IMG/VR virus record: IMGVR_UViG_3300029305_003110
Location: 1-64,000 of that record
DNA: 64,000 bases
DNA from: a virus
Taxonomy: Duplodnaviria; Caudoviricetes
Direction: 5' to 3' (one strand)
Positions 5,747 through 56,842 of the stretch are shown here, piece after piece (the first letter of the stretch is position 1; each line of letters opens with the position of its first letter). The notes beneath the pieces are model-generated. The model ran no database searches. It had not been told where the DNA came from and worked only from the letters and a program-made list of their open reading frames with translations. A program made the translations under genes and the position numbers.

Positions 5747-7747
5747 TTATGGTCTTTCTTTGAAGAATGGATCTATAAAAGATTTTCCCTTCTTCTTAAA
5801 TGTTAATGGATTTAATAACTGTCGACCTAAATACTGGAATGATAAACCTATCAAAACTGATGGATGTTTTTCCAATGCTGCTGATACTGTTAAGATTTGT
5901 GTATCTTCCCTAGCACCATATTGTCTAAAATCGGGTCGTTCTAAAATATCTTCAATAGAACGAACTAATGGATTTATCATAACTTCACCATGAACCGACA
6001 TTACATTGATTTTTGATTCTATTAACAAATCGAGCATCTTTTGAGCCATATCGTCAACTGTCTCAATACCCATTTCTCTACGATGTTCTTTAGTATCCAA
6101 TAATCCCATAATGCTGTATAATGGTCTTGTTAATTCGTTATTTTCAATCTCCATAAGAAATAGACGTATATCATCAGGTATATCCATAAGATTTATTTCA
6201 TATACTTTTTTGTTTTTCTTATTTATACCCATTGCAGAAATTAATTCTGGTGATAAATACATATCTTTTCTATCCTTTTCAAATATTTCAATATAATCGC
6301 CAGTCTTATTATTCTTTATATGGAATATGGTTACAAATTCATTAATTTCCCCTTCATTTAATTCGCTTATTGTTACAATATTATCGGCTATGATAACTAA
6401 TGAATAATCCGATAAGTTATCATTATCAACATTCAGCATTATTTCATTAGCAGATAATGTAAAGAAATCGTTAAATTCTTTAGGAAATTCCATTTTTTCT
6501 GATGCTGTTGTTAACAGATGTTTTGATGATAGCACTGCCTGTGATACAGGGTTAGTTATGATTGCACCAGCAAATGCACCTATGCCAACATCATTTTTAT
6601 TTGTATGGAATAATACATCACCATAACATCCACGACATATCCCATGTTTTGATGCACATGTTATTGGGGATTTTATTAATATCTTCTTCCCAATTAAATC
6701 TGTTTCATTTCCTGTCAGAATCTTGTATGTGTGTTGACCAGGAGTTCTATAATAACGACCTATTAAACGTTCCAAATGAGTTTTGGTTTTAATTTCTATT
6801 GTTATAGGATGTACCGAATTACAGATTTTGTCATCCTTACGTAAATTTATATTGGACACTAACAGCATGTTCTTTCTTGCAAAATGACCCGATTTTCCCA
6901 TGACCGACTTGTTCATAATAAGAGCCTTCCTGCCACCTATTGAGTCAATAAAATAGTTACTAACATTTCCAAGACCGCCGACAACAAGATTTGAGTTTAT
7001 TGGCTGTGGTATAGTATTTCCTGCAAGGTCTGGTTTGAGTCCACCACTAATACTAAATTCACTAAGCTGTTTAGATTTTATTCCAGTACCAGAACGTAGT
7101 ATTGGTCTAAGAACATTTTCTTCACTCATCAATATTTCAATTTCTTCATTCATCAAATCATTAAGATGACTTTCTATTTTACTCGGTTGCCATGCGGGAT
7201 CCAATTTCGTATGAATAATTTCATCGAAGCGTTCATTTTTATTTGCTACATCAATGAACGCTTCGATATTCATAGTTAATCCTAATAAAATATTAAAGTC
7301 TGTCGAAATTCTTGATAAATTGAATATAAGATCGTGTAATATTTTATTCAATCTTTTATTTGATATCTTTGAGCGGTATGGGACAACTATCATCTTATCA
7401 ATATATTTCTTTATATATCCTGATGATAGTTTTGTTGCATCTACAATGTATGCTTCGTTTATTAAATCCTGGGAGTCCAATTCTATCAATGGTTCCCAAA
7501 AGAATAAGTTTGTTAAGAAATGTCGTAATTGCAGAACCTGAATATCGCTATCATTGTGGAATTTAAAGTATACCGGACATTCACGCAATTTTTTATGTTC
7601 AAATCCGGCTTTGATACAATCATAAATTTCGTCAATAAATGCTCTGTACCCTTTTTTAGTACTCATTTTTTCTTCAATAATAAATACCGTACTTTCAAAA
7701 TACTTAATAATATCTTCGATATTTTCAAAATTATTTTGTTTTGTCAT
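5747..7747 (-). CDS. Phage multisubunit RNA polymerase beta-prime subunit, C-terminal half
   Basis: Bridge-helix-like GKSGHFARK; SPITCASKHGICRGCYG zinc site; GIGAFAGAIITNPVSQAVLSSKH matches the RpoC trigger-loop region (GxxAAQSIGEPGTQLTMRTFH). Confidence 0.88.
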   Translation of the reverse strand: MTKQNNFENIEDIIKYFESTVFIIEEKMSTKKGYRAFIDEIYDCIKAGFEHKKLRECPVYFKFHNDSDIQVLQLRHFLTNLFFWEPLIELDSQDLINEAYIVDATKLSSGYIKKYIDKMIVVPYRSKISNKRLNKILHDLIFNLSRISTDFNILLGLTMNIEAFIDVANKNERFDEIIHTKLDPAWQPSKIESHLNDLMNEEIEILMSEENVLRPILRSGTGIKSKQLSEFSISGGLKPDLAGNTIPQPINSNLVVGGLGNVSNYFIDSIGGRKALIMNKSVMGKSGHFARKNMLLVSNINLRKDDKICNSVHPITIEIKTKTHLERLIGRYYRTPGQHTYKILTGNETDLIGKKILIKSPITCASKHGICRGCYGDVLFHTNKNDVGIGAFAGAIITNPVSQAVLSSKHLLTTASEKMEFPKEFNDFFTLSANEIMLNVDNDNLSDYSLVIIADNIVTISELNEGEINEFVTIFHIKNNKTGDYIEIFEKDRKDMYLSPELISAMGINKKNKKVYEINLMDIPDDIRLFLMEIENNELTRPLYSIMGLLDTKEHRREMGIETVDDMAQKMLDLLIESKINVMSVHGEVMINPLVRSIEDILERPDFRQYGAREDTQILTVSAALEKHPSVLIGLSFQYLGRQLLNPLTFKKKGKSFIDPFFKERP

Positions 7748-7889
7748 TTTCTTATTCTCCTTTACTTAAAAATACCGCTTTATTTTTTGTTTAAGCTAAA
7801 ATAATAATATATAAATGAAAAGATGTTGTCTGGTTATAAAAGTTAACGACAGAAACACCTATTTAAAAAATAGATTGGGAGGTGCTTAT

Positions 7890-9044
7890 ATGAATAATGA
7901 AGCAAATAATTACTATATAATTGATATTAACATGGGGGATGAGCCACAATTGACATCGATGATTGACCAAATTGAATCATTACAGATTAAACCATCGAAG
8001 CCTAAATACTATGATGATGATGATAGTTTAACTGATGATTCTATCATATTCTCTAAGCCAAAAAAAGAAAAAAATAAGAAGAAAAAAGATAAGAAAAAAG
8101 GAAAGCGTTCTATTCTTGAAGAAGCATCTGAGTTTGATATTGTTGACCAGGACGATGATGGTGATGAAGAAAATGATGATGATGCATTACTCGATATCGA
8201 AGATATCATACGAGAACGTGAAGATACCGAAATCGATGATGATATTATCAATGAGCAGAAAAACGGTTATAGTAAGTTAAAAAAACAAGATAACGTATAT
8301 AAAAAAGAATTTGCTGAAGAATTAACGTTACTTTATAACCTTCTTGATGAAACTGGAAAATTCGGAAAAGATTTGGAAAAAGAATTAAAATCTTTAAAGA
8401 GCTCAAGGTCGAGGGGTGTTAGTAAATATACTAATGATTTGGCGGAATTGGTATTGAGCTCAAAACAGAATAAGCTCAATATATTAAAAGAAATAACTTC
8501 TGTTAAAAAGACTATTGCTGACCTTAAGATTAAAGCTGAAGGAAAAGAAAAAAATAAAGATGGAGATAATAGCCCAGAAAGACTTGCATCTGCATACTTT
8601 AAAAATATATTGTCGAGCGGACGTTCTAATTTTATTAATAACTATACAAATGGTGATGATGAAAATGAGTATGATGATATGATTGATAGGATTGAAAAGA
8701 TGAAAGATACTGGATCATACATAGATGATGGAGATAATACTGATATGTATGATAAACGTTTAGAAGAACGTTTAGCTGAAGGAAATCCTTTTAGAAGTGA
8801 AGCCGGGACAAAATATATAGAATATGAAAATTCCGGTGTTAAAGTAAATATCAAGAAATGTATAGATACAGGTGAATGGGAATTTGTTGCAATAGATAAA
8901 CACAACCAACAAATTAATGATTATCCGTTACCATCTAAACGTTCTGCTGGACGTATGCGTTTTAGTGAAGATGGTTCTTATGCGACTGATGAAAAAGGTA
9001 TTATGTATAGTGTTATTGAATATTATTTGCCGGATGAAGAATAA
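7890..9044 (+). CDS. Acidic/basic low-complexity coiled-coil hypothetical protein (start revised from 7815)
   Basis: GGAGGTG RBS before ATG 7890; AACA-N6-TA at 7854-7865. Confidence 0.7.
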   Translation: MNNEANNYYIIDINMGDEPQLTSMIDQIESLQIKPSKPKYYDDDDSLTDDSIIFSKPKKEKNKKKKDKKKGKRSILEEASEFDIVDQDDDGDEENDDDALLDIEDIIREREDTEIDDDIINEQKNGYSKLKKQDNVYKKEFAEELTLLYNLLDETGKFGKDLEKELKSLKSSRSRGVSKYTNDLAELVLSSKQNKLNILKEITSVKKTIADLKIKAEGKEKNKDGDNSPERLASAYFKNILSSGRSNFINNYTNGDDENEYDDMIDRIEKMKDTGSYIDDGDNTDMYDKRLEERLAEGNPFRSEAGTKYIEYENSGVKVNIKKCIDTGEWEFVAIDKHNQQINDYPLPSKRSAGRMRFSEDGSYATDEKGIMYSVIEYYLPDEE

Positions 9045-9048
9045 GAAA

Positions 9049-9091
9049 AAAATAAGAAGTACGTGATTTTATTTCACGTACTTCTTATTTT
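9049..9091. terminator. Bidirectional terminator bounding the 36-nt array
   Basis: 18-bp perfect stem AAAATAAGAAGTACGTGA/TCACGTACTTCTTATTTT with T-runs on both strands. Confidence 0.8.
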
Positions 9092-9105
9092 CATTCCCCC
9101 TTTAA

Positions 9106-10397
9106 GATACTATAAATTCACATGATTCATTAAATGATTGTGATACTGTTGATCGAATTGATTCATTTACGTTCTGTGATACTATATTTGTGTGTGATTC
9201 ATTATCTGTTATCTGATTCTATTTTCATCATTGATTCGTTTATCTTCTCAGATACGATTGTATAGAATGACTCATTATACTCCTGGGATACTATTGCGGT
9301 TCGTGATTCATTTTTTTATCTTAGATACTATTGACGACCTCGACTCATTTTTTGTCTATGATGCTATTTTCATCACTGATTCGTTTAGAATTAATGATAC
9401 TATATTTTGGAGTGACTCATTAAGTAAAGGTGTTACTATTGCCATCCATGATTCGTTTTGAAGTATTGATACTATAGTTCCCTATGACTCATTTGGCTCT
9501 TTTGTTACTAAATATAAGAATGAATCGTTATTTCAATCCTGGTACAGTTATCTTTTATGACTCATTCTTTGTGTATGGTACTATTGATATAATTGATTCA
9601 TTGTTATATGATGATACTATTACCCTTAATGATTCATTTATCTACTAAGATACTATTACACATCTTGACTCATAAACTATCATTCGATACTATTTACATT
9701 ATTGATTCGTTCACGCATAATGTTACTATCTCAATAATTGACTCATTAATAAATTTTGATACTATTTTCAAAGATGATTCATTTCGTTTTTATGATGATG
9801 TAACGAATATTGATTTGTTTTTAAACTATAGTACTAATGGTGTATATCGAATCATTTTGGTCTTTTGATACTAAATCTATGAATGATTCGTTATTTCACT
9901 CTTGGTACAGTTATTTTTTATGACTCATTAAAAATGCTTGATACTAGTTTCGTTCATGATTCATTTTCTGTATTTGAAACATTTTTCTATTTTGACTCAT
10001 TATGAAAAAATGATACTATTTTTTTTTCTTGATTCGTTAATTTTTTTAGATACATGTTTTAAGAGGTGACTCATTGTATTCTTGTGATACCATCGCAGCT
10101 ATCTGATTCATTACTCATTATAGGTACTATAATTATGTGTGATTCATTTTATTTTCACGATACTATCATTTCGTATGATTCGTTTTTAAACAATAATACT
10201 TTATATACATATGACTCATTCAATCTTAGTGATACATTAACTTTGTAAGATTCATTCACCATCCCTGATACCATGTTCAATGTAGATTCATTAGCTCATT
10301 CTGATACAATTATTCAAATGGATTCATTAAATATTTTTGATACATTTTTTATGTCGGATTCATTTTATGTTTACAGATACTATATATTCTATTGATT
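9106..10397 (-). ncRNA. Dual-repeat interspaced array of ~36 x 36-nt units; putative TIGR-type guide-RNA array
   Basis: Plus strand alternates (T)GATACTAT and (T)GAYTCRTT every 18 nt with variable spacers (minus strand: AATGAATCA-N9-ATAGTATCA-N9); occasional +1 nt spacers and stop codons exclude one ORF. The repeat structure is directly visible; strand and TIGR identity are inferred. Confidence 0.75.
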
Positions 10398-10401
10398 TTA
10401 A

Positions 10402-10437
10402 AATTATCGGTATGATTCATGAATCATACCGATAATT
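10402..10437. repeat. Perfect 36-bp palindrome (terminator or processing hairpin) at the array boundary
   Basis: AATTATCGGTATGATTCATGAATCATACCGATAATT equals its own reverse complement. Confidence 0.85.
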
Positions 10438-10459
10438 CATTTAAGGAATATAGATAAAG

Positions 10460-10924
10460 TTATTTAACTTTATCTTTTATTTCTTTATTAAAGAATTCCT
10501 GAAGACTATCATAGTCTGAATTATTATATCCCTCATATAATTTATCATAATCTAAATTATATTTCAAAGCCATAGCTTCTATTGATTTAGGAGTTTCAAA
10601 ATACACATCTTTTTCAATGTATTTATTGAATACTTCTATTGCTTCAGGGTCTCCTTCTTCAACATCTCTTGTTAACTTATATCTATCGGGCATCGATAAT
10701 CTTTCAATGTTCAATATTACAGTGGTACATATAGTAAACATTACAATTATTGTCAGAATGACTGCTATTGTACCCTTTATTGATTTTGATTTCTGATCTT
10801 TCATTTCTAATCTCCTTTTGAGAACTCTATTCTCCTGTTTTAAACTTACATTTTCTGCTCTTAGATTATTCATCATTTCCTCATATGAATCATAATCTTT
10901 CGTTGATGTTAAATTATAGTCCAT
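10460..10924 (-). CDS. Coiled-coil plus single transmembrane hypothetical protein
   Basis: AGGAGG RBS; TATATATTAT motif at 10969-10978; hydrophobic segment IAVILTIIVMFTICTTVIL. Confidence 0.75.
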   Translation of the reverse strand: MDYNLTSTKDYDSYEEMMNNLRAENVSLKQENRVLKRRLEMKDQKSKSIKGTIAVILTIIVMFTICTTVILNIERLSMPDRYKLTRDVEEGDPEAIEVFNKYIEKDVYFETPKSIEAMALKYNLDYDKLYEGYNNSDYDSLQEFFNKEIKDKVK

Positions 10925-11001
10925 TTTAAATGGTCCTCCTTGATAAATATTTTTTATTTTATATGATAATAATATATATTTATATAGCGTATAAATACGG
11001 T

Positions 11002-13644
11002 TTATACGCTATATATTATATTTGAATTTTTATAATTGTCAAGGCTAATATCAGATGTCAGTATTATATCAACAGGATAATTATCGAACATGTTGTTGTG
11101 TGTGATTAAGAAAATTTGCTCAGAATCTATAACTTCCATCTGTTTTTCGAGGATATTTAAAAACATAGAACGGTTATGAGTATCCAGTGTACTATCTATT
11201 TCATCTAATAATAACACATTATAATCTTTTATTGATTGAGTTATTAGAGCAAATGATAATGCTAATGATAAAAAACTTCTTTCTCCTTGCGATGCATATA
11301 CGACATCATTTATACGGATACCATTTTTTATATATGGGATATTAAACTCTGTTGCATTTATTTCAAAATCATCAATTTCAAAATTATCACCATACACCAT
11401 TTCTAATAATTGATTTACGTACATTTTACTATTTTTCAAATATAACTGAATAAATAATAGAGGTATTCCCTTATTAGATGATAAGGCTTCACGTATAAGC
11501 AGTATTTCATCAAACTTATCAGTTAATATATTTCGTTCTTTCGATAAATTATCAAATTCTTTTAATGCAAACCTTTTATTAAATATATCTTTTTCTAAAT
11601 TATCAATATTCCAATCGATATTTTTTATAGTATTTTCTATACTGCCCTTTTCGCTCAATAGATTAGATAAACTGGCTAATGTCTTATGTCTATAATCTAT
11701 TTCTTTTTCATTATTAGAAATATTAATCTTATAATCACATACCTGAACTTCAATATTTGCATATAGTTCCGCATTGTCTTTAAGTTGTTCAAAATCTTCA
11801 ATCCTATCTGTAATATTGATGATAGTTTTAGATATTGTCGCGTCTAAAAGTTCTATTTCAGAAATTTTATTATCAATAGAATTGAGTTCAGAATTTAATT
11901 TATCTATATTAGATTTATTGACATTCATAGACCTCATTTCATAATCAAGTTCTTTGATTTTAACTTCAAGCTTTTTATAATCTTCATATTCCTCTATGTC
12001 TGAGATATATTCAGTTAAAATATTCTCGTTATATACATCAGAACGACTATCTATAGAATTAATTATATTTTCTAATGAAAAATATGTTATATTAGTTTTG
12101 TCTATGAGTTCTTTATTAGATTTTAATAATATAAGGATATACTCAAAATTCCTATTTATATTAGATAACATTTCTAATATATCTTTCTCATTTTGTAATG
12201 AAGATAATGACTCTTTATTTTCATTTGAGTCATTGCCAAATATAACATCATATAATTCTAAATATGGACATTTCTTATTTGGACAATCTTCGGGTCTGAA
12301 TAAAATAGCCACATTATTATTTAAGAAGGATGTATTTACATCTTTATTAAATTTAGATATCTTTTTATCTATTATAGATAGATTTTCTTTAATATAACTA
12401 TCTATATTAATACCGTCTCTAAATAATTTAACAAATGTATTTATAGCAATATTATCAAATTCGTATATTGTATATACAATTTTATTTATTTCTATGAGAA
12501 TATTTAATAGCACCATCATATTATCTTTACTATCATTAGGAACTCCTTTAGAAAATTTTTCTTTATATTTTTCACACTTTTTAATTAAATCTAATTGAAG
12601 ATTGGATATTTGAGCATATTCCAAATCCGAAGTCAATTTTTTTAATTCAAGATATATGTCTTCACGTTTATTATATAAATCATTCAATTGGTCTTTATAA
12701 AATGATGACATGCTCTTATTATATTCAATTTTAGAATTTAATTCATTGAGTTGAGAATTTATATCAGATAGATATGATTCTATTGTATCGGTTATAACAA
12801 CAAAGCAATTATTTTGTTTATCAATTAACCGAGATAATTCTTTTTCATAATCCTTGGTTTCATTTGTTAACTCATTTAAGTTACTCTTAAATGTATCTAT
12901 TCCTTCAGGGATTATAACCGATATTTTTCCATTAATTGTGCCGTACTCATGTTGTAATTTTTCTTTTTCTTTTTTATACTCAAGTAAACGATTTTCTATA
13001 TCGCTTATGTCTTTTTGTAATAATTCAGCATCGATTATATTGAGCTTATCTATTTTATCAGTAACAGTTTTTAATAAATTCTTAAGGAGCTTTGTATCTT
13101 CATTTACCTTCTTATATAATTCATTATAAATATTTATATCTGATAATAAATCTGATGTAAAATTCTTTCTTTCTGCAGATTTCATTTCTATAAGATTAGT
13201 TACATTAGAACCTAATCTTAATAATTTTAAATAATCAGATTCTATAGATAATTCATTTTTTATAACTTCATGGAAGGAACGTACATTTCCATTTGGGTTT
13301 AATTCATTTCCATTTTTCTGTATAAAGCTTTTAACAGATACTTGATTTTTTGATGATTTATAAAAATGCTGTATTTTATATTCATCGTCTCCAAATTCTA
13401 TCCAAATCTCTTTATATCCATCTTCCCCTTCCAATATTAAATTTGTATTATTTCTAACATCCATATTTCCTGGATATGCAAATGGATGCAATGCACTTAA
13501 TATAGAAGTTTTTCCGCTACCATTTTTACCAACCAGAAGGGTGATATTGTGTTTTGACTTAGAAAAATCTATTTCTATTTTCTTCTTATGCATAGATACA
13601 TATATTGATGCATAATTCTTTAATTGTAAATAAGTTATTTTCAT
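11002..13644 (-). CDS. sbcC: SbcC/Rad50-like SMC-family ATPase
   Basis: Walker A GKNGSGKT, long coiled coils with central CPNKKCPY, signature ASQGE, Walker B LLLDE, ITH switch. Confidence 0.88.
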   Translation of the reverse strand: MKITYLQLKNYASIYVSMHKKKIEIDFSKSKHNITLLVGKNGSGKTSILSALHPFAYPGNMDVRNNTNLILEGEDGYKEIWIEFGDDEYKIQHFYKSSKNQVSVKSFIQKNGNELNPNGNVRSFHEVIKNELSIESDYLKLLRLGSNVTNLIEMKSAERKNFTSDLLSDINIYNELYKKVNEDTKLLKNLLKTVTDKIDKLNIIDAELLQKDISDIENRLLEYKKEKEKLQHEYGTINGKISVIIPEGIDTFKSNLNELTNETKDYEKELSRLIDKQNNCFVVITDTIESYLSDINSQLNELNSKIEYNKSMSSFYKDQLNDLYNKREDIYLELKKLTSDLEYAQISNLQLDLIKKCEKYKEKFSKGVPNDSKDNMMVLLNILIEINKIVYTIYEFDNIAINTFVKLFRDGINIDSYIKENLSIIDKKISKFNKDVNTSFLNNNVAILFRPEDCPNKKCPYLELYDVIFGNDSNENKESLSSLQNEKDILEMLSNINRNFEYILILLKSNKELIDKTNITYFSLENIINSIDSRSDVYNENILTEYISDIEEYEDYKKLEVKIKELDYEMRSMNVNKSNIDKLNSELNSIDNKISEIELLDATISKTIINITDRIEDFEQLKDNAELYANIEVQVCDYKINISNNEKEIDYRHKTLASLSNLLSEKGSIENTIKNIDWNIDNLEKDIFNKRFALKEFDNLSKERNILTDKFDEILLIREALSSNKGIPLLFIQLYLKNSKMYVNQLLEMVYGDNFEIDDFEINATEFNIPYIKNGIRINDVVYASQGERSFLSLALSFALITQSIKDYNVLLLDEIDSTLDTHNRSMFLNILEKQMEVIDSEQIFLITHNNMFDNYPVDIILTSDISLDNYKNSNIIYSV

Positions 13645-15586: not shown

Positions 15587-18239
15587 TTAATCTGGTATAT
15601 TAACATCGATAACCATATAGTTATCTAAATTCTCGATAGTACTAATATTGAATGTTTTATCAACATCATTAGTTCTTAAATGATAATCGAAATATTCTTC
15701 CACACTATTGAACGATGGTGTTACTTTTATAGGTAAATCGCCATTATCAGATATTGTTTCCATAATATCTTTATCAAAATTATATTTGAATGACTCCGGA
15801 TCATTTTCTCCATTAAAGTATAACCCGTCAGTTTTACAGAATGGTGTAAGAACTGCTGATGTACCAGGCATGGCGTCTTCACATAGAGTCGTTAATTCTA
15901 TGCAGTTCTCCTATGAACTTCTATATATTTCTATATAGCATGAGACTATATCTTCAACTCTCAGGATGAGAGTTGCTCTCCATTTCCACTCACTTGAGTG
16001 TACTCTACTCGATTAACCAAGATTAATATCTATATAATAATATTTATCTTCGTCTCTTTCGATAGTCGTTGAACTTTTTGATATATATTGTTTGTATATG
16101 TCGTAGTATAGTACTTTTCGTTTTATTGCAGATATTCGTTTAACGAATCTATTAAATCTTTCTGGATCATTCCTCTTAGAACCTATATTAAATTTTTGTA
16201 ATATTTCATGTGTAGTCTTTCCTTCTGCTATCATTTTACACAGCATATGAATATCCTCATCATTTAATTTATCAATAGTTCCATGAGTTTTTCTATGCCA
16301 ATACTGATTAGTTGAATAGTCTCCCCATCGAATATTGTCTTTGAAATTGTTTAGCGTATCATTGTCGATATGCTCAGCAATACTATTTTTGCATTTTGGT
16401 TCTCCATGAAATGCTCTTGCTACCAATCGACTTACTCTAAAGTTACGTTTACCAGAATACGTTTCTAATCTTATAGAAAAATATCCATCATCACCAAGAG
16501 ATGCTTTTCTGGATTTATTTCTTGTATGATTATACACGTTACCGTATTCATCAATTTCGTATATTGGTTTTATATTCCAAAAATCTATTTTAACCCGCAT
16601 ATTACATACCTCCCTTCATAATTATTTTTATCTATAAGTATTTAATATACAATATATATCAACTTAGCTGCGGATTGACCATATATCTATTAACCTTTTT
16701 ACTATACCTTATATGATTAGTATAAGCCCTTATCTATATTACTATGATAAGTTAGTAGTTAAAGCTTTAGGCATCCGATATAATTATATCAGATAGTCAT
16801 CACTCATGACTCGTCCCCGCAATTAAAAGAGTTAAGTGACCATTTTATTAATCACTTGTGCCGCAAACATTAATATCTATTTTCCCAATATAAGATGGGT
16901 CAATACCTCTATATTTTGCAGCAATATTATTATCATTAGTACCACCTAAACTATTTGGACCCTTAAAAGTTATTCTAAGCTTTGCAAAGAAATCCATATC
17001 GTTTACTTTGTCGTCAAAGCGCAATAATCCGCTTTTATGCAACTGCTGGATCAATAAGTCGCCGGGAAATTTAAATATTTCCTTAATATTTTTTAGAGTT
17101 GCTTTACTTCCTAATGCGATTATTCTATTGACTCTCTCGGAAAACGCCTTAGTGAGCAATGATGCAATGTATTCATTACATCTTAATCGCTTATTATTTA
17201 AATCAAGATTATCTTTCTTTCTTAAACTATTAAAGTTCATAATCATCCATCTCAGTATCGAATACGTATCTGTTTTATTGATTGGATGAACTTTTAATAT
17301 TCGTTTAGTTGTATCATCAATCATTCTGTCGAAGAATGTTAATGTATTTAACCCTTTTTCATACTGGCTAGTTTTTGTTGTCGTTCCCAAACTGCCGATA
17401 CTCTCTATCCAGTAATATTCATTATATAGTATATCAAATGTCAATCTATTTGTTACTATATTCAATAACATGAATGCTATAGTTCTAGTATACACATATT
17501 TGTCAAAAAAGTATTTATTTACTTCCAAGAACATTTTAGAGCTTATTGGGAAATACACATTATTATCTTTATCATCGATAGTATTAGTAAATCTAATTAT
17601 CTTATCGACAGAGAAGTATTTTAATGTTTCATCGATTCCCATTTTTGCTAAATAGAATAATAAGATATCTGCATCTTTCTTAAATATGTTAATTGTGTAT
17701 GTTGGTGCAGAATATTCTTCATCATCAATAGTCTTATACGTTGCCATTTTTAATTTCATAATTACCGGCATCATAGATTTAAGTGTTAGTGTTGACTTTG
17801 TTGTATATGTGCTAGAATCTACAATCTGATACATTAAGAAATACTGTGTTCCTTTGATAGTATAATATCCTCTTTCATCTGGAACAGGAATTAATAATTT
17901 CTTAACTATAATATCTTCTTCATCTCCACATTCGAGATGAAACTTTAACTGCAACTCAGCGTACCTACTATCCTTAAGATACATATATCGTGTTGCATCT
18001 TTTTTCTTAGTTTTACCTCTGCTTCTTGCATCAATATAATCACTTGTATTTATTTCTGCCTCATTCGTTATATATTCATAACCGAGAAACTTAACGAATT
18101 TGAGGACTTCGAGCGACTTACAACAATCGACAATATACTCAACTAACTCATAGTCATTTTGTCTATTGATTAGTCCATAATTCATTCGTTCTTCATTTTT
18201 ATTTTTATATTCTTTTATGAATTTTTTCAAAACTATCAC
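15587..18239 (-). CDS. Phage RNA polymerase beta subunit, N-terminal half; spliced from exons 18239-16851 and 15868-15587 (~556 aa)
   Basis: GPNSLGG...YRGIDPSYIGKIDINVCGTSD|PGTSAVL matches RpoB GPGG...RDVHxSHYGRxCPIETPEGxNIG; splicing restores the frame. Confidence 0.85.
15869..16850 (-). mobile_element. Group I intron in the RNAP beta-N gene, carrying an HNH endonuclease
   Basis: P1: exon AAGUGAU pairs with GUCACUU with a U-G at the splice site; core motifs AAUUGCGGGGA, AAUCCGCAGC, GUUCAACGACUA, AAGAUAUAGUC; terminal G at 15869. Confidence 0.88.
16013..16600 (-). CDS. Intron-encoded HNH homing endonuclease
   Basis: YEIDEYGNV...VSRLVARAF...EHIDNDTLNNFKDNIRW; its 3-prime end runs into the intron core. 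Confidence 0.85.
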   Translation of the reverse strand: MRVKIDFWNIKPIYEIDEYGNVYNHTRNKSRKASLGDDGYFSIRLETYSGKRNFRVSRLVARAFHGEPKCKNSIAEHIDNDTLNNFKDNIRWGDYSTNQYWHRKTHGTIDKLNDEDIHMLCKMIAEGKTTHEILQKFNIGSKRNDPERFNRFVKRISAIKRKVLYYDIYKQYISKSSTTIERDEDKYYYIDINLG

Positions 18240-19808: not shown

Positions 19809-21896
19809 TTAACTACGATGAAACCCAAAAGCTTTATAAGCTTCTTCGAGTGTCATTATTTCTTTACCATCTTTTCTTGCTTTTTCTAGTTTTGATGATG
19901 CAGAATCTTTATTATCAGTTATAACTAAATCGACACTTTTATTATATCCTGATAATATTTCTATCTCTTTATCATCTAAGAATTTTTCAAATTCTTCATC
20001 GGGTCTTACTTTAGTAAATAAGACTTTCATTGAATATCTTTTTGTATCACGCGTCACCTTCAATTCTTTTCTTAAGAACTCTATCAATTTCAGATTTGAT
20101 ATAATTCCTACTATTATTTTATTGGCTGTTTTTTCTTTAATCCCATATATGCTTGTAAGTTTTTTAACATCATTATTTACACATATATCTATCAGCTCAT
20201 CAATATAATATATATTCAAAATCTTCTTAAACATTTTTCTTCCAACATCAGGAATTCCTAATGATCCCAACAGTATATAATCAAATACTTTATTTCTTGA
20301 ACTAATACCGTTGACTATATTATCAATAGATTTCTTTCCAAATCCATCAATTAATACTAATTTGGATTTCTTATTTTTAAGACTATATAAATCTTCTATC
20401 GATGATAGATATCCTTCTGTAAATAAAGTGGTGACTATTCCAACAGAAATATTCGGTATATTCATTTTATCGATATAATTTACAATCTTACCCATTATAC
20501 GAGATGGGCAATCATTATTTGTACATCTCAATATTGGGTCTTTTAAAAGTTTTTCTCCGCAATACTCACAATATGTCGGAGGTTTAATTAAAGAATTTTT
20601 ACTACTTTCACAAGTATGGTCTACATCCAAATATGGAATTATGTCATATTTTATTATAACTTCATCACCTTTTCTAAGATGTAACGATTCAAATCTATCC
20701 ATAGATCCTAATGAAATACTTTTTATAGTATTACCATTCATGACAACAGGTTCGACTTTTGCAACAGGTGAAACCGAACCCAATATTCCCATACAAAACT
20801 TCACATCAAGCAATGTTGTTTTGACACTTTCTGGTTTAAACTTATATGCTACTTCGAATAGGTTTATTGCATCTTCTCGACCAACTGCATTCTGAATATT
20901 TTTATCAATCAATTGAATAACCACACCATCTATTGGTATCTCCATAAAATTTTTGACATATTCTTTTATACTCGTCATCATTGGGAGCATCTTTGTGTAA
21001 TCGGATAACGTAAATTTGTACAACGGATATATAAATGCATCCGGATGAACTATAACCTCTTTGGTTTTAAAATTCTGCATTCGTAATGGAATGATTGTTA
21101 AATATTTTAAATATTTTGGATCAGGATCCTTATTAATTATTGATGATGCTGCCGATCGCTGATTGTTATATCTAGTGAACTTCTCTTGTAATAATTTGAA
21201 ATTTGATTGTGTTATTATTACTTCAGTTTTCACTGCAAATTCACAGTCCCATTCCTCGTACGGTTTGAACTTGACGTAAGAAAACAATGGAGTTATGTCA
21301 ACAGCTTCATTGGCAGTTGTATCTCCTCGAGTTAATGCTCTCTGAATAGTACCATCTGGATTGCATTCGAACACAACAGACACACCATCGAACTTCGGAA
21401 ATATAAAGATTAAATTCTCTTCACCACGCAATTCTCTGCCAAGTCTATTATTTACTTTATTTATCCAATCTTCAATACTTTTTCTTTTATCTTTACCTTT
21501 TTCTTCATTTGTTAAAAAATGCGCTTTAAGTAACGTACCTCGTAAATCCGGATAACGGTGGTTTACAATTGTTTTATTTTTGACATTTTTTGCACCAACA
21601 ATATTCTTATTAGCACCACTAATAAGAATTTCATTTAAAATATCAAAATTCTCATCAGATATCGGAGAGTCGCAATCTGACGCATTGTTATAGATATTCT
21701 GTAGTATCTTAACAATGAACTCAATTATTATCAAATCCTCTTTGTCATAATCGTCTTGGTAGTTAATATAATAATTAACTAAATTATTTATTTTTATTGC
21801 TTCTAATGCCGTTACAAGTTCTTTATATTCATCAACCTCGTAACTCTCTTCATATATCGTTTTAAGCATATGAATTATCTTACTCTTGTCTATCAT
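19809..21896 (-). CDS. ligA: NAD-dependent DNA ligase
   Basis: KFDG adenylation motif, RALTRGD, IDGVV, AYKF, OB fold, C4 zinc finger (CEYC...CTNNDC), HhH repeats, BRCT-like C-terminus. Confidence 0.93.
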   Translation of the reverse strand: MIDKSKIIHMLKTIYEESYEVDEYKELVTALEAIKINNLVNYYINYQDDYDKEDLIIIEFIVKILQNIYNNASDCDSPISDENFDILNEILISGANKNIVGAKNVKNKTIVNHRYPDLRGTLLKAHFLTNEEKGKDKRKSIEDWINKVNNRLGRELRGEENLIFIFPKFDGVSVVFECNPDGTIQRALTRGDTTANEAVDITPLFSYVKFKPYEEWDCEFAVKTEVIITQSNFKLLQEKFTRYNNQRSAASSIINKDPDPKYLKYLTIIPLRMQNFKTKEVIVHPDAFIYPLYKFTLSDYTKMLPMMTSIKEYVKNFMEIPIDGVVIQLIDKNIQNAVGREDAINLFEVAYKFKPESVKTTLLDVKFCMGILGSVSPVAKVEPVVMNGNTIKSISLGSMDRFESLHLRKGDEVIIKYDIIPYLDVDHTCESSKNSLIKPPTYCEYCGEKLLKDPILRCTNNDCPSRIMGKIVNYIDKMNIPNISVGIVTTLFTEGYLSSIEDLYSLKNKKSKLVLIDGFGKKSIDNIVNGISSRNKVFDYILLGSLGIPDVGRKMFKKILNIYYIDELIDICVNNDVKKLTSIYGIKEKTANKIIVGIISNLKLIEFLRKELKVTRDTKRYSMKVLFTKVRPDEEFEKFLDDKEIEILSGYNKSVDLVITDNKDSASSKLEKARKDGKEIMTLEEAYKAFGFHRS

Positions 21897-53527: not shown

Positions 53528-56500
53528 TCAATTCTCTTTTATATCTATAATAACTTCACCTTTTCTAACAGGTAATAATTTCTTACCTTTAGATAATCTT
53601 GGTAGTTCTGGAACTTCTTCCATTTTAATTTCCTCAATACTTGATGTTAAATATGCTTTAAAGATTTCATTACCTTTTACAGTTTTTATTAACTGCACAC
53701 CATCATCCGATTCTACTGAAATAATCTTTAATGGTTTAGCATTTCGTTCCATTGTATTGAAATTATTTAATGTGCATAATTTGCCAAAACCTTTTTTAGA
53801 CAATGCGAATAAATATTGGTCTTTATCACCAATAACATCCATCCCTAATACACTTTCTCCTTCACCAAGAGGAAGTGCTCGAATTCCAACAGTCATACGA
53901 CTCGTCTCTTTAATTTCAGATGAATTAAATCGTACGCCATAACCCGTATTAGTATATATAACGATATCTTTATCACCAGCTATTAATTTAACAGATACAA
54001 GTTTATCATCATCCTTGACTATCAATCCGAGTAGTTCGTTTTTGATATTGGTGTATGCACTTGCTAAAGTTTTCTTAATAATACCATTAGAGGTTATCAT
54101 CAAATAATATACTGGAACTTTTACTTTATCAAGCTCTTCAATAGTCGGTTTAGATTTTATGGTTGTAATCTTACCATTTATTGTGCAATAATCTGATAAT
54201 TTATTGCCCTCGCTATTTAACACACAACCGTGTATCGAATGTACCGGTAGTTTAGAAATCTTTCCGCTCTCATCAAATATTAATAAATCGGATGTATTCT
54301 TACATTCGATGATTTCTCTCGGATAATCACCTTTATTAATAAACCCAACATTTTTAATATTATCTGGTAACTTCTTAACAAAACCATTCGATGTGAATAC
54401 CATGACATGATCGGTATCACGAACCTTAACTTCATTATCAACATTTATGATTTGACTTCTGCGTTCTTCACCAAATAATTCAATTCCTTCTTTTAACTCA
54501 TCTTTAATAATTTTATCAATTTTCTTTGCTGAGCGGACTATTTTGTCAATTTTTATAACTTCAGCATCAATCTCTTCTTTTTCTTTAACATATCGTCTAT
54601 ATGCTTCTTTTGAGAACGCTGTTAATGTCATATTGGCAATTGTGGTCGCTTGTAATGAAGATATACCGTACATCTTCATTAACCCTTCAATAATTTCTTT
54701 CTTAGATTCAGACTTCTTAATTAAACCTATAGTCTTCTCAGCATTATCTTTATTGAGGATAAATAACATAATTTCCAATATATGCTGACGTTCTCTAGCT
54801 TTTGTCAATTTATGGTTATATAAACGACGTTTTGTTTCCCTACGAAAATCAATCCAAGTTAATAATATACTTTTTATAGTATAATCGTTGTCTTCATAGT
54901 CTTCTATCAATTTAAATACTACAGGGAATGTCTTCTCCATCTGAGTCTTTGAATAAATCATATGCATTATTGAATATGGATCCACTTCTTTTTTAAGAAT
55001 AATTTCATAATGCATAAATCCAATATCAGAATGGTCGATAAAGTCTTTCATCATATTATTTTTTCCATCATTTAATAATGAAAATACTTGCGCCTTTATC
55101 TTATTCCAAAATGCCTGTAATGGTGTAGATTTAATGTGAAGAGAATTTCTATCTTCATCAATCTCAATAACACCCCTCATCTTAAAACGACCTGTGCCAA
55201 CTTTTGATATTTCCGGAAATTGACCTTGGTCGACTATATAAGCACCGGTCGGTGAGTCCGGGAATAATACAATATCATCAATGTTTGGATTGTCTATTAA
55301 TTCTATTGTCGTTTCCAAAACTTCTTTTAAGTTATACGTACAAATCGATGTTGAGATACCATCATTTATCTTCCATATGAGTCGTTAATTCATATACGTT
55401 CTCTTATGAACTGCTATATATTTCTATATAGATGAGACTATATCTTCATCTTATAAATAAGATGCCCTCCATTTCCACTCACTTGAGTGTACGTCTTTCG
55501 ACTAGTCGTTGAACCTTTTTATATATTTATTTATAATGTCTTTATGTCTATCTTGTTTTCTTATATGTGATAATAATGAATTTAATTTAATAATGTTATA
55601 ATCCGCATATTGATATTTGGATATAATATAATCCCGTATTTCAACATTTGTTAATTTTTCAATATACATCTTTTCACATATTTCATGTATTAATTCGGAC
55701 CGATATACGCAGTTTGGGTGTTCGTCGCCCTTGCGTGGATTTAAAAAACCACCATCCCGAGCTTCTATTTGATTATATTGATTATCACACCACTCTAAAT
55801 TCTCATAATAATTATTCAAAGAATCATTATCGAGGTGATGAACAAAATCAAATTTTTCAGGATTTGTATTTGGTACAAATTCCCACGCCACTAATCGATG
55901 AATACTAACATCGACATATTGTCTCTGTTTATCAATCACACTATCTTTTGCTAATACAACTTGAAGGTATGCCCGTTCGCGCATAGTATTAAACGAAATT
56001 CGCGATTTGCTTGCCGGTGATAATAATTTATTAGTAATTAAACTATATACACGCCCATGGTTGCTAATCATATAACTATTCTTTTTAACCGATGGGTAAG
56101 TTATAGTTTTCCATATTTCAGGTTTTTTAATAAAAATATACATCATCGTCAACACCTCCTCTTAAAATATTATAGACTTTAATAAATATATAAACTTGGC
56201 TGCTGATTGTCTTCAACTTTACTTGTTAAGAGTTTCCAGCAATTAAAAGGGTTTGCTACATATATCACTATATGCAGGGACTTATATTTCAAATCCAATT
56301 CCAAAAGTATTATTTATTAATACATTTGGATATCGTGAAGGTAAGAATTCTGGTTCTTTTTTATTACCAAGATAATTCAATTTCATATCAACGATATCTT
56401 CACTAAATTCTTCAAAGAAACATTTATAAGCATAATATGATAATCTTGCCTCAATATAACGACCGCTCGCTGCAGGATCTCCAGATGGGCTACCAAAGTT

Positions 56501-56842
56501 ACCCTGACCCTCAACCAGACATTGTATGTTATTCCAAGGCTGTGCTAATTTTACCAATGTTTCTGAAACTGGAATTTCGCCATGTGGATGAAAATCTAAT
56601 GTGTTTCCGACAATAGATGCTACCTTTAAAAATGAGCCTTTATAACTAAGCCCTAATGAATACATTGTATAAAGTATTCGTCTTTCTCCTATCTTTAATC
56701 CATCAAACACACCCGGCAAATGTCTCATAAGATTATTATTTGCAGCAAATATTTTCATATAATCCATACATGCTGAACTCATATTAACGTTGTCTATTCC
56801 CGAGTTGTAATTTGCATCTTTTTTATTTTTCTTTTTTGCCAT
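53528..56842 (-). CDS. gyrA: Type IIA topoisomerase subunit A (GyrA/ParC-like); spliced from exons 56842-56293 and 55362-53528 (~794 aa)
   Basis: DGLK...RRILY, HPHG, GQGNFGS, catalytic RY in ASGRYIEARL; the splice gives FGIGYGISTSICTYNL (cf. GIAVGMATNIPPHNL); beta-pinwheel CTD. Confidence 0.9.
55363..56292 (-). mobile_element. Group I intron in gyrA carrying an HNH endonuclease
   Basis: P1 GGAU/GUCC with U-G; AAUUGCUGGAA, AAUCAGCAGC, GUUCAACGACUA, AAGAUAUAGUC core; terminal G at 55363; exon sum 2385 nt is in frame. Confidence 0.88.
55502..56155 (-). CDS. Intron-encoded NUMOD4/HNH homing endonuclease
   Basis: EIWK...YMISNHGRVYS...IHRLVAWEF...VHHLDNDSLNNYYENLEW. Confidence 0.88.
   Translation of the reverse strand: MLTMMYIFIKKPEIWKTITYPSVKKNSYMISNHGRVYSLITNKLLSPASKSRISFNTMRERAYLQVVLAKDSVIDKQRQYVDVSIHRLVAWEFVPNTNPEKFDFVHHLDNDSLNNYYENLEWCDNQYNQIEARDGGFLNPRKGDEHPNCVYRSELIHEICEKMYIEKLTNVEIRDYIISKYQYADYNIIKLNSLLSHIRKQDRHKDIINKYIKRFND

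Follow-up and report, generated by a model that had tools for sequence, protein, structure and literature searches.

The question raised by this locus is what kind of element is formed by a stretch of non-coding DNA in which two different short repeats alternate around spacers that are nearly all different, and whether the genome that carries it also encodes a protein able to use it. The locus lies in positions 1 to 64,000 of the IMG/VR record IMGVR_UViG_3300029305_003110 (this whole 64,000-nucleotide stretch is called the window), which derives from a phage of approximately 210 kb from animal-faeces metagenomes, with a genome of 209,768 bp that is 85% complete. A first-pass annotation, made from the letters alone, had noted about 36 units of two repeats alternating at a spacing of 18 nucleotides (nt) at 9106-10397, and had proposed a guide-RNA array of the TIGR type. 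TIGR-Tas systems were first described in 2025 (Faure et al., Science 2025; PMC12045711); according to that paper, dimers of Tas proteins bind 36-nt tigRNAs that are cut within edge repeats, and the two spacers of each are used on opposite DNA strands. Our analysis indicates that window positions 9092-10401, on the minus strand, very probably constitute a dual-repeat TIGR array served in trans by a TasA protein of the phage itself, this being the best explanation of the evidence taken as a whole.

A box-by-box walk along the locus recovered 72 full 9-nt boxes between 9105 and 10401, belonging to two types that alternate strictly (on the plus strand, TGATACTAT-type boxes with TGAYTCRTT-type boxes); together with a truncated box at either end, these make up 36 units at 9092-10401. 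Neighbouring boxes are 18 nt apart in 61 of the 71 intervals and 19 nt apart in 10, but never 17, and spacers of 9 nt (n = 62) and 10 nt (n = 10) are mixed within the one array. When read from the minus strand, each unit consists of an edge repeat AAUGAAUCA, spacer A, a loop repeat AUAGUAUCA and spacer B. The edge repeat also occurs as AAUGAGUCA and AACGAAUCA, and its variants alternate regularly across the middle of the array. The unit that characterizes dual-repeat arrays, namely two alternating repeats of 8-12 nt, variable spacers of approximately 9 nt and a length of 36 nt, is thus present here.

The density of boxes is confined to this locus. The core GA[TC][AT]C[ATG][AT]T has 184 plus-strand occurrences genome-wide, with 49 of them in the 1.5-kb bin from 9001 and fewer than 6 in every other 1.5-kb bin of the 209,768-bp genome, and a lenient chain search of that whole sequence found no second array. 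Tandem Repeats Finder did not report the array, because the spacers differ, and no open reading frame (ORF) spans it, the longest stop-free frame covering 91 of 445 codons. Segments of the array (e.g. 9130-9843) recur in contigs of four public DNA runs with no differences and no gaps, and the 10-nt spacers are therefore no artefact of a single assembly; the four runs may include the source sample and lend no independent support. These short contigs showed no turnover of spacers between strains, their sequence being that of the window wherever they fall on the array and the uncovered parts being uninformative. A search of Rfam at E<=1 assigned the array to no family, its sole returns being chance matches below threshold at the flanking hairpins. 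The first-pass description of the locus, as regards the number and alternation of units, the minority of spacers with one extra base, and the contention that it is neither a gene nor a simple tandem repeat, was borne out in all these respects.

The two repeats have A1, G4, A6, U7, C8 and A9 in common, and both finish in UCA, as had been read from the letters, with an invariant G and C. Across both types G4 and C8 are each conserved at 96% and U7 at 88%. The conservation of G4 and C8 fits the G-C pair of a box C/D motif, as well as the presentation of one and the same motif by both repeats to a symmetric dimer, which the TIGR papers describe as necessary. Published rules define the edge repeat as the one whose inner bases can pair, and describe a grammar in which an array opens with an edge truncated on its 5' side and closes with one truncated on its 3' side, followed by a terminator.

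Both end features are present in the window array. On the minus strand, the first edge repeat (UUAAAAUCA, 10393-10401) is truncated at its 5' side and keeps only the AAUCA, or box-C, half, such that the array begins with ...AAAUCA, and the last (AAUGAAAAU, 9087-9095) is truncated at its 3' side and keeps the AAUG, or box-D, half, reading AATG... at 9092-9095 and merging into the stem of a rho-independent terminator. The array therefore opens on a truncated edge and closes on a truncated edge plus terminator, as in the published grammar. Comparable ends were found among 14 arrays in five genomes: the first box is degenerate, with only ...AATCA kept at a fixed offset, in 9 of the 14 (in 2 more it is displaced by one base), and AATG lies one spacer past the last ATAG-type (loop) box in 7. 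Taken with the edge rules, the truncated ends establish AAUGAAUCA as the edge and AUAGUAUCA as the loop, and the number of units as 36. The repeats of related arrays read ATAGTATCA and AATGAATCA on the tas strand; ATAGTATCA was considered as an edge repeat and dropped, with published rules and array ends both pointing the other way. The mature guide is predicted to read 5'-AAUCA, spacer A, AUAGUAUCA, spacer B, AAUG-3', at 36 nt, or 37 nt with a 10-base spacer. The earlier idea of some 35 split guides hence stands as to the guide array, with the count refined to 36 complete guides.

The Nop family of Pfam (PF01798) had no match anywhere in the genome at E<=10, which proved to be a false negative for Tas. 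The protein was located by way of related phages: public viral contigs were first scanned for the box signature A-B-A, the exact form of which was present on 8 other viral contigs, at 17 loci in all, and in two of these 17 the gene directly beside the array was tas. The array-adjacent protein of the relatives matches chain 9mty_A of the PDB at E 3.8e-12 and TasH chains at 3.6e-7, and the Tas proteins of the relatives also show a weak match to Pfam Transposase_20; 9MTY is given in the TIGR paper (PMC12045711) as the TasR-tigRNA-DNA structure. One tas homologue is encoded by the phage studied here. It is an intact ORF of 294 amino acids at 121,150-122,034 on the plus strand, equipped with a ribosome-binding site and a terminator of its own, and its product aligned by sequence, across the Nop part alone, with 9mty_A (E 3.7e-22) and TasH (E 2.4e-11). 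A structure model built from 27 homologues had a predicted local distance difference test score (pLDDT) of 87.7 and a predicted template modelling score (pTM) of 0.85; in a Foldseek search with this model all of the top 10 PDB matches were TasH or TasR (E approximately 1e-7), followed by IS110-family recombinases, and identity to TaTasR and SpTasH in the structural alignment was 19-24%. With an intact ORF, sequence matches and fold matches, a Tas protein is thus present in the same genome, and the fallback once put forward for a genome lacking one, an undescribed RNA-guided system, is unneeded. Because no nuclease domain is present, the modelled protein is a TasA, with a Nop domain only. Its homologues number 922 proteins at E<=1e-5, many of them on phage contigs of 160-260 kb, and bear only the names 'hypothetical' or 'transposase-like'.

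The association of these repeats with tas was evident from a comparative set of four related genomes, each at least 90% complete; the records lacking tas, also four in number, were fragments of 9-62% completeness. Each of the four relatives encodes one tas gene, and in all four an array of the same two repeats lies 57-786 nt from it, in three cases downstream on the tas strand. The four relatives also carry further, remote arrays of at least 8 boxes, one to four in each, at 6-151 kb from tas. Array occurrence is tied to tas in all five genomes that are at least 85% complete. The genome studied here has a single array, which is remote, and no tas-proximal one. The gene upstream of tasA is conserved beside tas in the relatives G001 and G003, where an array follows tas in both; downstream of tasA in the present genome there are a terminator and an unrelated gene.

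At the other end of the comparison, the 409-amino-acid gene that converges on the window array has a homologue in G003 (63% identity), followed by a clean 6-unit array in the same arrangement, and this syntenic array begins 13 nt past the stop of an upstream same-strand ORF of 130 amino acids. The syntenic array site is occupied in G001 by two ordinary, unrelated ORFs. The simplest history suggested by these sequences would be that the tas-proximal array was lost, with the array at the site of the 409-amino-acid gene standing at 36 units here against 6 in G003. Between the phages TasA is 44-52% identical and the flanking proteins 30-65%; the same two repeat consensuses found and scored the arrays in all five genomes, and none of the 72 spacers is common to any relative. 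Conserved repeats, unshared spacers and diverged proteins together imply that the repeats are under selection and that the spacers are free to differ. Variation of spacers across relatives was what the first-pass annotation had proposed to look for, and an intact ORF in the related phages, which it had named as evidence to the contrary, was found in none of the four genomes. The mean box identity of the window array is 7.89 of 9, with 7.70-8.71 in arrays of the relatives, and to judge by this measure it is not unusually decayed.

Several of the relatives' arrays deserve mention in their own right. The longest array seen, with approximately 67 boxes over 1.6 kb, occupies 85420-87000 of G003 (loci L013 and L029), 122 kb from tas, between neighbours that include a 160-amino-acid ORF and a DNA polymerase gene. 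The same array is carried by G004, an 86-kb fragment, the box layouts of L005 and L013 being identical. One nearly identical guide unit is common to G001 and G006, at 17 of 19 spacer positions; these two phages are distantly related, an RNA polymerase subunit being approximately 30% identical to that of the phage studied here in one and 66% in the other. Another unit is common to G001 and G003 at 15 of 18 spacer positions. Such near-identity is far above chance for some 1000 comparisons, and suggests either a common target or the exchange of array units.

The array reads from the minus strand, as had been supposed, because the repeats of the relatives sit downstream of tas on the tas strand and because a terminator follows the array here. 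This terminator (9092 to 9048, minus strand) has a 19-pair stem followed by a T-run, and lies also just past the stop of the convergent 409-amino-acid gene. Four terminator-like sites were found in 8700-11100, where shuffled sequences gave 0.3. The hairpins reported at both ends were confirmed, the second being a perfect palindrome of 17 + 17 nt at 10403-10436, between the array and a 154-amino-acid gene, with TTTT after it on the minus strand. This palindrome is absent from the list of the terminator scan, having too few T residues, and is likely to be a leaky terminator or a processing hairpin. Its centre consists of the edge-repeat sequence and its reverse complement; it could have originated from array units, or could serve as a signal for processing or attenuation.

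Next to the array on its upstream side, and in the same orientation, lies the 154-amino-acid gene (10460-10924, minus strand), the product of which has a coiled coil and one membrane helix; the search for an informative family yielded none for it. The convergent 409-amino-acid gene (7815-9044, plus strand), the synteny marker used above, matches phrog_27823, to which no function is assigned; no Pfam family, no meaningful PDB sequence match and no relative in the phage and viral collections searched was found for it. It had been entertained as a candidate Tas and was rejected once the true TasA was located. Farther out, the minus strand carries an RNA-polymerase-like gene at 5747-7747 (phrog_3015, 'RNA polymerase beta subunit', E 2e-63) and a second split multisubunit RNA-polymerase-like gene at 16848-18239, the latter named from the appearance of its sequence alone. 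There are also an SbcC-like ATPase at 11002-13644 and an NAD-ligase-like gene, named by eye, at 19809-21896. Together these genes mark a jumbo-type phage with its own transcription apparatus, which bears on the question of which polymerase would transcribe the array.

From these observations a mode of action may be proposed. Minus-strand transcription would enter the array, probably as read-through from the 154-amino-acid gene across the palindrome at 10403-10436, and would end at the 9092-to-9048 hairpin. The precursor would be bound by dimers of the nuclease-free, 294-amino-acid TasA, acting in trans from approximately 111 kb away, and cutting in the middle of the edge repeats would yield 36 guides of 36-37 nt. 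These would steer DNA binding without a nuclease, with binding or transcriptional blocking as the expected outcome and no cutting; blocking is to be expected rather than cutting because TasA has no nuclease. The preprint 10.64898/2026.09.09.750476 reports that TasA and dead TasR repress transcription.

Several findings weigh against a TIGR-TasA array in use. The array is 110,749 nt from tasA and no array adjoins that gene, whereas the TIGR papers describe arrays adjacent to tas. No RNA run was found to contain the locus. No promoter was identified, with sigma-70-like matches at chance level (23 found, 22.2 expected), and a palindromic hairpin stands between the array and the 154-amino-acid gene. 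The box motifs depart from the reference UG-N4-CCA, which is the layout assumed by TIGRFinder: only 3 nt separate the G from the C, UCA takes the place of CCA as box C, the loop repeat shows AG instead of UG, and the G is preceded by two additional conserved bases. In the first five units box C is weaker (UCC/UCU) and the loop repeats are variant. Stop codons confined to spacers are mildly depleted in one plus-strand frame (3 against 8.5 expected, P approximately 0.02, six frames tested and uncorrected). The processing dyad of SpTasH, Y289/H296, is reported as conserved in dual-repeat systems. Its histidine has an equivalent in TasA H274, invariant in 27 of 27 homologues, but the position of Y289 is occupied by Phe267, with Phe in 18 and Tyr in 9 of the 27; the two positions were equated through a weak HMMER alignment between a relative and TasH, with residue numbering taken from PMC13421893. 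Phe at the position of the catalytic Tyr renders autonomous processing uncertain, and by this residue guide processing by the present TasA may not be autonomous.

The alternative that fares best, albeit an unlikely one, is that the array is TIGR by descent and is now an unused relic, unlinked from tasA, promoterless and drifting. It would account for an array more than a hundred kilobases from tas when all four relatives keep a tas-adjacent array, for the disappearance of the tas-proximal array that G001 and G003 retain beside the same conserved upstream gene, for the degenerate box C of units 1-5 with the ten 10-nt spacers, and for the failure to identify a promoter. However, the repeats are as well conserved as those in the relatives' tas-adjacent arrays, with G4 and C8 at the level given above, and neutral decay would have eroded the boxes as fast as the spacers and produced deletions, where every spacing observed is either 18 or 19, with none of 17. 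Intact truncated ends, an intact terminator and an intact tasA also speak against a relic, and TasA would otherwise be guideless, no further array having been found in the contig; remote arrays are, moreover, the rule in this clade.

It is considerably less probable that the boxes are DNA-level sites for a binding protein, such as iterons, centromere sites or nucleoid-organising repeats. Short conserved boxes at regular spacing, intergenic and in several places per relative genome, are what such sites would look like, and the Discussion of PMC12045711 mentions an occasional linkage of TIGR-TasA loci to ParB-like genes. Such sites nonetheless offer no rationale for a strand-specific grammar, with truncated ends, a terminator on one strand and a fixed orientation past tas, nor for an occurrence tied to tas in every sufficiently complete genome, and a spacing of 18 nt is not helical-phase.

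Least probable of all, and scarcely tenable, is a plus-strand protein-coding repeat (D-T-I-x-x-x / D-S-F-x-x-x), decayed or frameshifted, which the six-codon period, the intact six-residue-repeat genes of this phage (34137-34937, 37722-38465 and 38556-39575), the mere 7 stops in 426 plus-frame codons once the extra bases are removed and the mild stop depletion would favour, but which must accommodate ten +1 shifts and 7 stops (17 frame breaks, and a longest open frame as short as that given above), a depletion that fails six-frame correction and recurs at the same P in one minus-strand frame, coding paralogs with unrelated repeat sequences, the absence of a single ORF from all 14 arrays of the five genomes, with their spacers of 8-12 nt, and the absence of an intact long ORF at the syntenic site (a 6-unit array in G003, two unrelated ORFs in G001, none in four genomes), and which leaves the co-orientation with tas, the truncated-repeat ends and the terminators unexplained.

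Other regions of 18/36-nt periodicity in the genome (34.2, 38.5, 89-91.7 and 179 kb) were considered as arrays and rejected, as they lie inside ORFs and have unrelated repeats. The three six-residue-repeat genes just named, all on the minus strand, are paralogs with a conserved N-terminal region and long, beta-helix-like repeats; they show the strongest 18/36-nt periodicity of the genome, and a similar gene is found in G003 at 56179-56787. The 18/36-nt periodicity at 89.5-91.3 kb, outside the window, comes from a periodic ORF of more than 870 codons at 89048-91669 (plus strand), which probably encodes a structural protein of the tail-fibre type. In part of the tas-adjacent array of G003 (L015, 1973-2336) an open frame runs along each strand, 103 and 116 codons long (D-T-I/D-S-L and N-E-S/I-V-S); these frames are probably due to chance in a stop-poor stretch, and illustrate how arrays come to be mis-called as genes.

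With the TIGR array served by TasA thus retained as the best account, its spacers were examined for their origin and their targets. Units 14-15 (9848-9929, minus strand) and 24-25 (9485-9566, minus strand) have a rare loop variant, ACUGUACCA, in common, and each of their four spacers is identical at 7-8 of 9-10 positions. Exactly two whole units were duplicated here, with point divergence afterwards, and the earlier statement that nearly all spacers differ holds in that most are unique, with these two pairs of units as diverged copies. There was no general excess of similar spacers in an all-against-all comparison, with 34 pairs at 7 or more matches against 28.5 in shuffles. The duplication and the regular alternation of edge-repeat variants are a hint, no more, that unit duplication and mutation contribute to array growth. 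Both the TIGR paper (PMC12045711) and the preprint 10.64898/2026.09.09.750476 call the origin of spacers unknown.

Targets were sought with spacer A on one strand and spacer B on the other, in both registers and with 0-4 nt between the halves, using five guide sets (36, 32, 35, 74 and 31 units) against all five genomes with arrays masked. Composite targets were not above controls: the real pairs gave one exact match and 34 with one mismatch, against 0-1 and 29-43 in four mispaired controls. The sole exact match, of a G002 guide at approximately 19.36 kb of the present genome with a 1-nt gap, is of a kind that the controls also yield. Self- or cross-targeting among the five phages is hence not detectable, and the suggestion that the guides are directed at competing phages found no backing in this set. 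Chance matches of 18 nt are to be expected in very large collections, any 18-mer being expected many times by chance in 596 billion bases, and the same point is made in the preprint 10.64898/2026.09.09.750476.

Beyond the single locus, the comparative set prompts a wider proposition, which we regard with as much doubt as confidence: that there is a clade of large gut phages in which TasA acts in trans with arrays scattered through the genome at up to approximately 150 kb, lying downstream of different genes and maybe stage-specific in their use, and that the present phage has lost its tas-proximal array, such that the 36-unit remote array provides all of its guides. The survey in the preprint 10.64898/2026.09.09.750476 lists 6,685 arrays for 20,096 tas loci, with flanks of up to 10 kb inspected on each side, and leaves open the 'arrayless' loci, about two thirds of those surveyed. 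If the proposition is true, many published 'arrayless' tas loci may have distant arrays, because surveys looked no farther than 10 kb from tas. The diverged two-unit duplication would likewise point to duplication with point mutation as a route of guide gain without adaptation machinery. The locus thus offers a testable reason why some tas genes look 'arrayless', and material for comparing how arrays are gained, lost and duplicated; it is a clean natural case, with a long unlinked array on a nearly complete phage genome and four relatives that display the linked state together with remote arrays. What may surprise a specialist is an array of 36 guides unlinked from its effector, in a clade where remote arrays are the norm. 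In the literature searched, terms for TIGR arrays were never combined with 'jumbo phage', supplementary tables (e.g. table S1) lying outside that search, so that this TasA or its relatives may be listed there; the words 'orphan' and 'jumbo' are likewise absent from the available text of PMC12045711 and of the preprint 10.64898/2026.09.09.750476.

Among known systems, CRISPR is the most familiar. Orphan or remote CRISPR arrays are similar in that the guides lie apart from the effector gene, whose product presumably serves them in trans, as with the several arrays per genome in the relatives. In contrast, the present locus has two different 9-nt repeats and split spacers of 9-10 nt that read both DNA strands, is far shorter in both elements, as the first-pass annotation had remarked, and as a TIGR array comes with no Cas1/Cas2 or known adaptation machinery. 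A CRISPR array was ruled out, as there is neither a single repeat of approximately 25-36 nt with spacers of similar length nor, in Pfam or PHROGs, any Cas family among the neighbouring genes. The IS110-family bridge-RNA recombinases (IS621; 8WT6/8WT9) have an RNA-binding fold in common with TasA (Foldseek E 2e-3 to 1.6e-2), and dual-segment guides are found in both IS110-family and TIGR systems, but TasA has no DEDD/RuvC recombinase domain, many short guides take the place of one bridge RNA, and no transposon ends are present here. Closer still are TaTasR (9MTY) and SpTasH (9W03/9W04/21KL), the Nop domain and coiled-coil core of which match TasA by sequence and by fold; the present protein differs in having no RuvC or HNH nuclease domain, and in the Phe at the position of SpTasH Y289.

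The nearest counterparts are the dual-repeat TIGR-TasA systems of Faure et al. (Science 2025, PMC12045711; e.g. FpTIGR), a likeness known here from sequence and predicted fold. These likewise have alternating 9-nt repeats with spacers of approximately 9 nt in a 36-nt unit, truncated edge repeats at the ends and a terminator, and a solo Nop-domain Tas, in a phage genome. The differences are that the array here lies 110.7 kb from tasA where theirs are adjacent, that it has 36 units where 5 to 15 are most often found, and that it combines a UCA box C and a G-N3-C layout with mixed 9- and 10-nt spacers where theirs have CCA and UG-N4-CCA. The locus is a dual-repeat TIGR-TasA system, with all testable defining features found save for tas adjacency and the exact box layout, and no new kind of system is revealed; adjacency to tas is how the family was discovered, not a mechanistic requirement. 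Within that family it stands out for an array unlinked from tas, a G-N3-C/UCA box geometry, spacers of mixed length and one duplication of whole units, and a TasA variant with UCA boxes, another box spacing and both 9- and 10-nt spacers may interest engineers of compact DNA binders.

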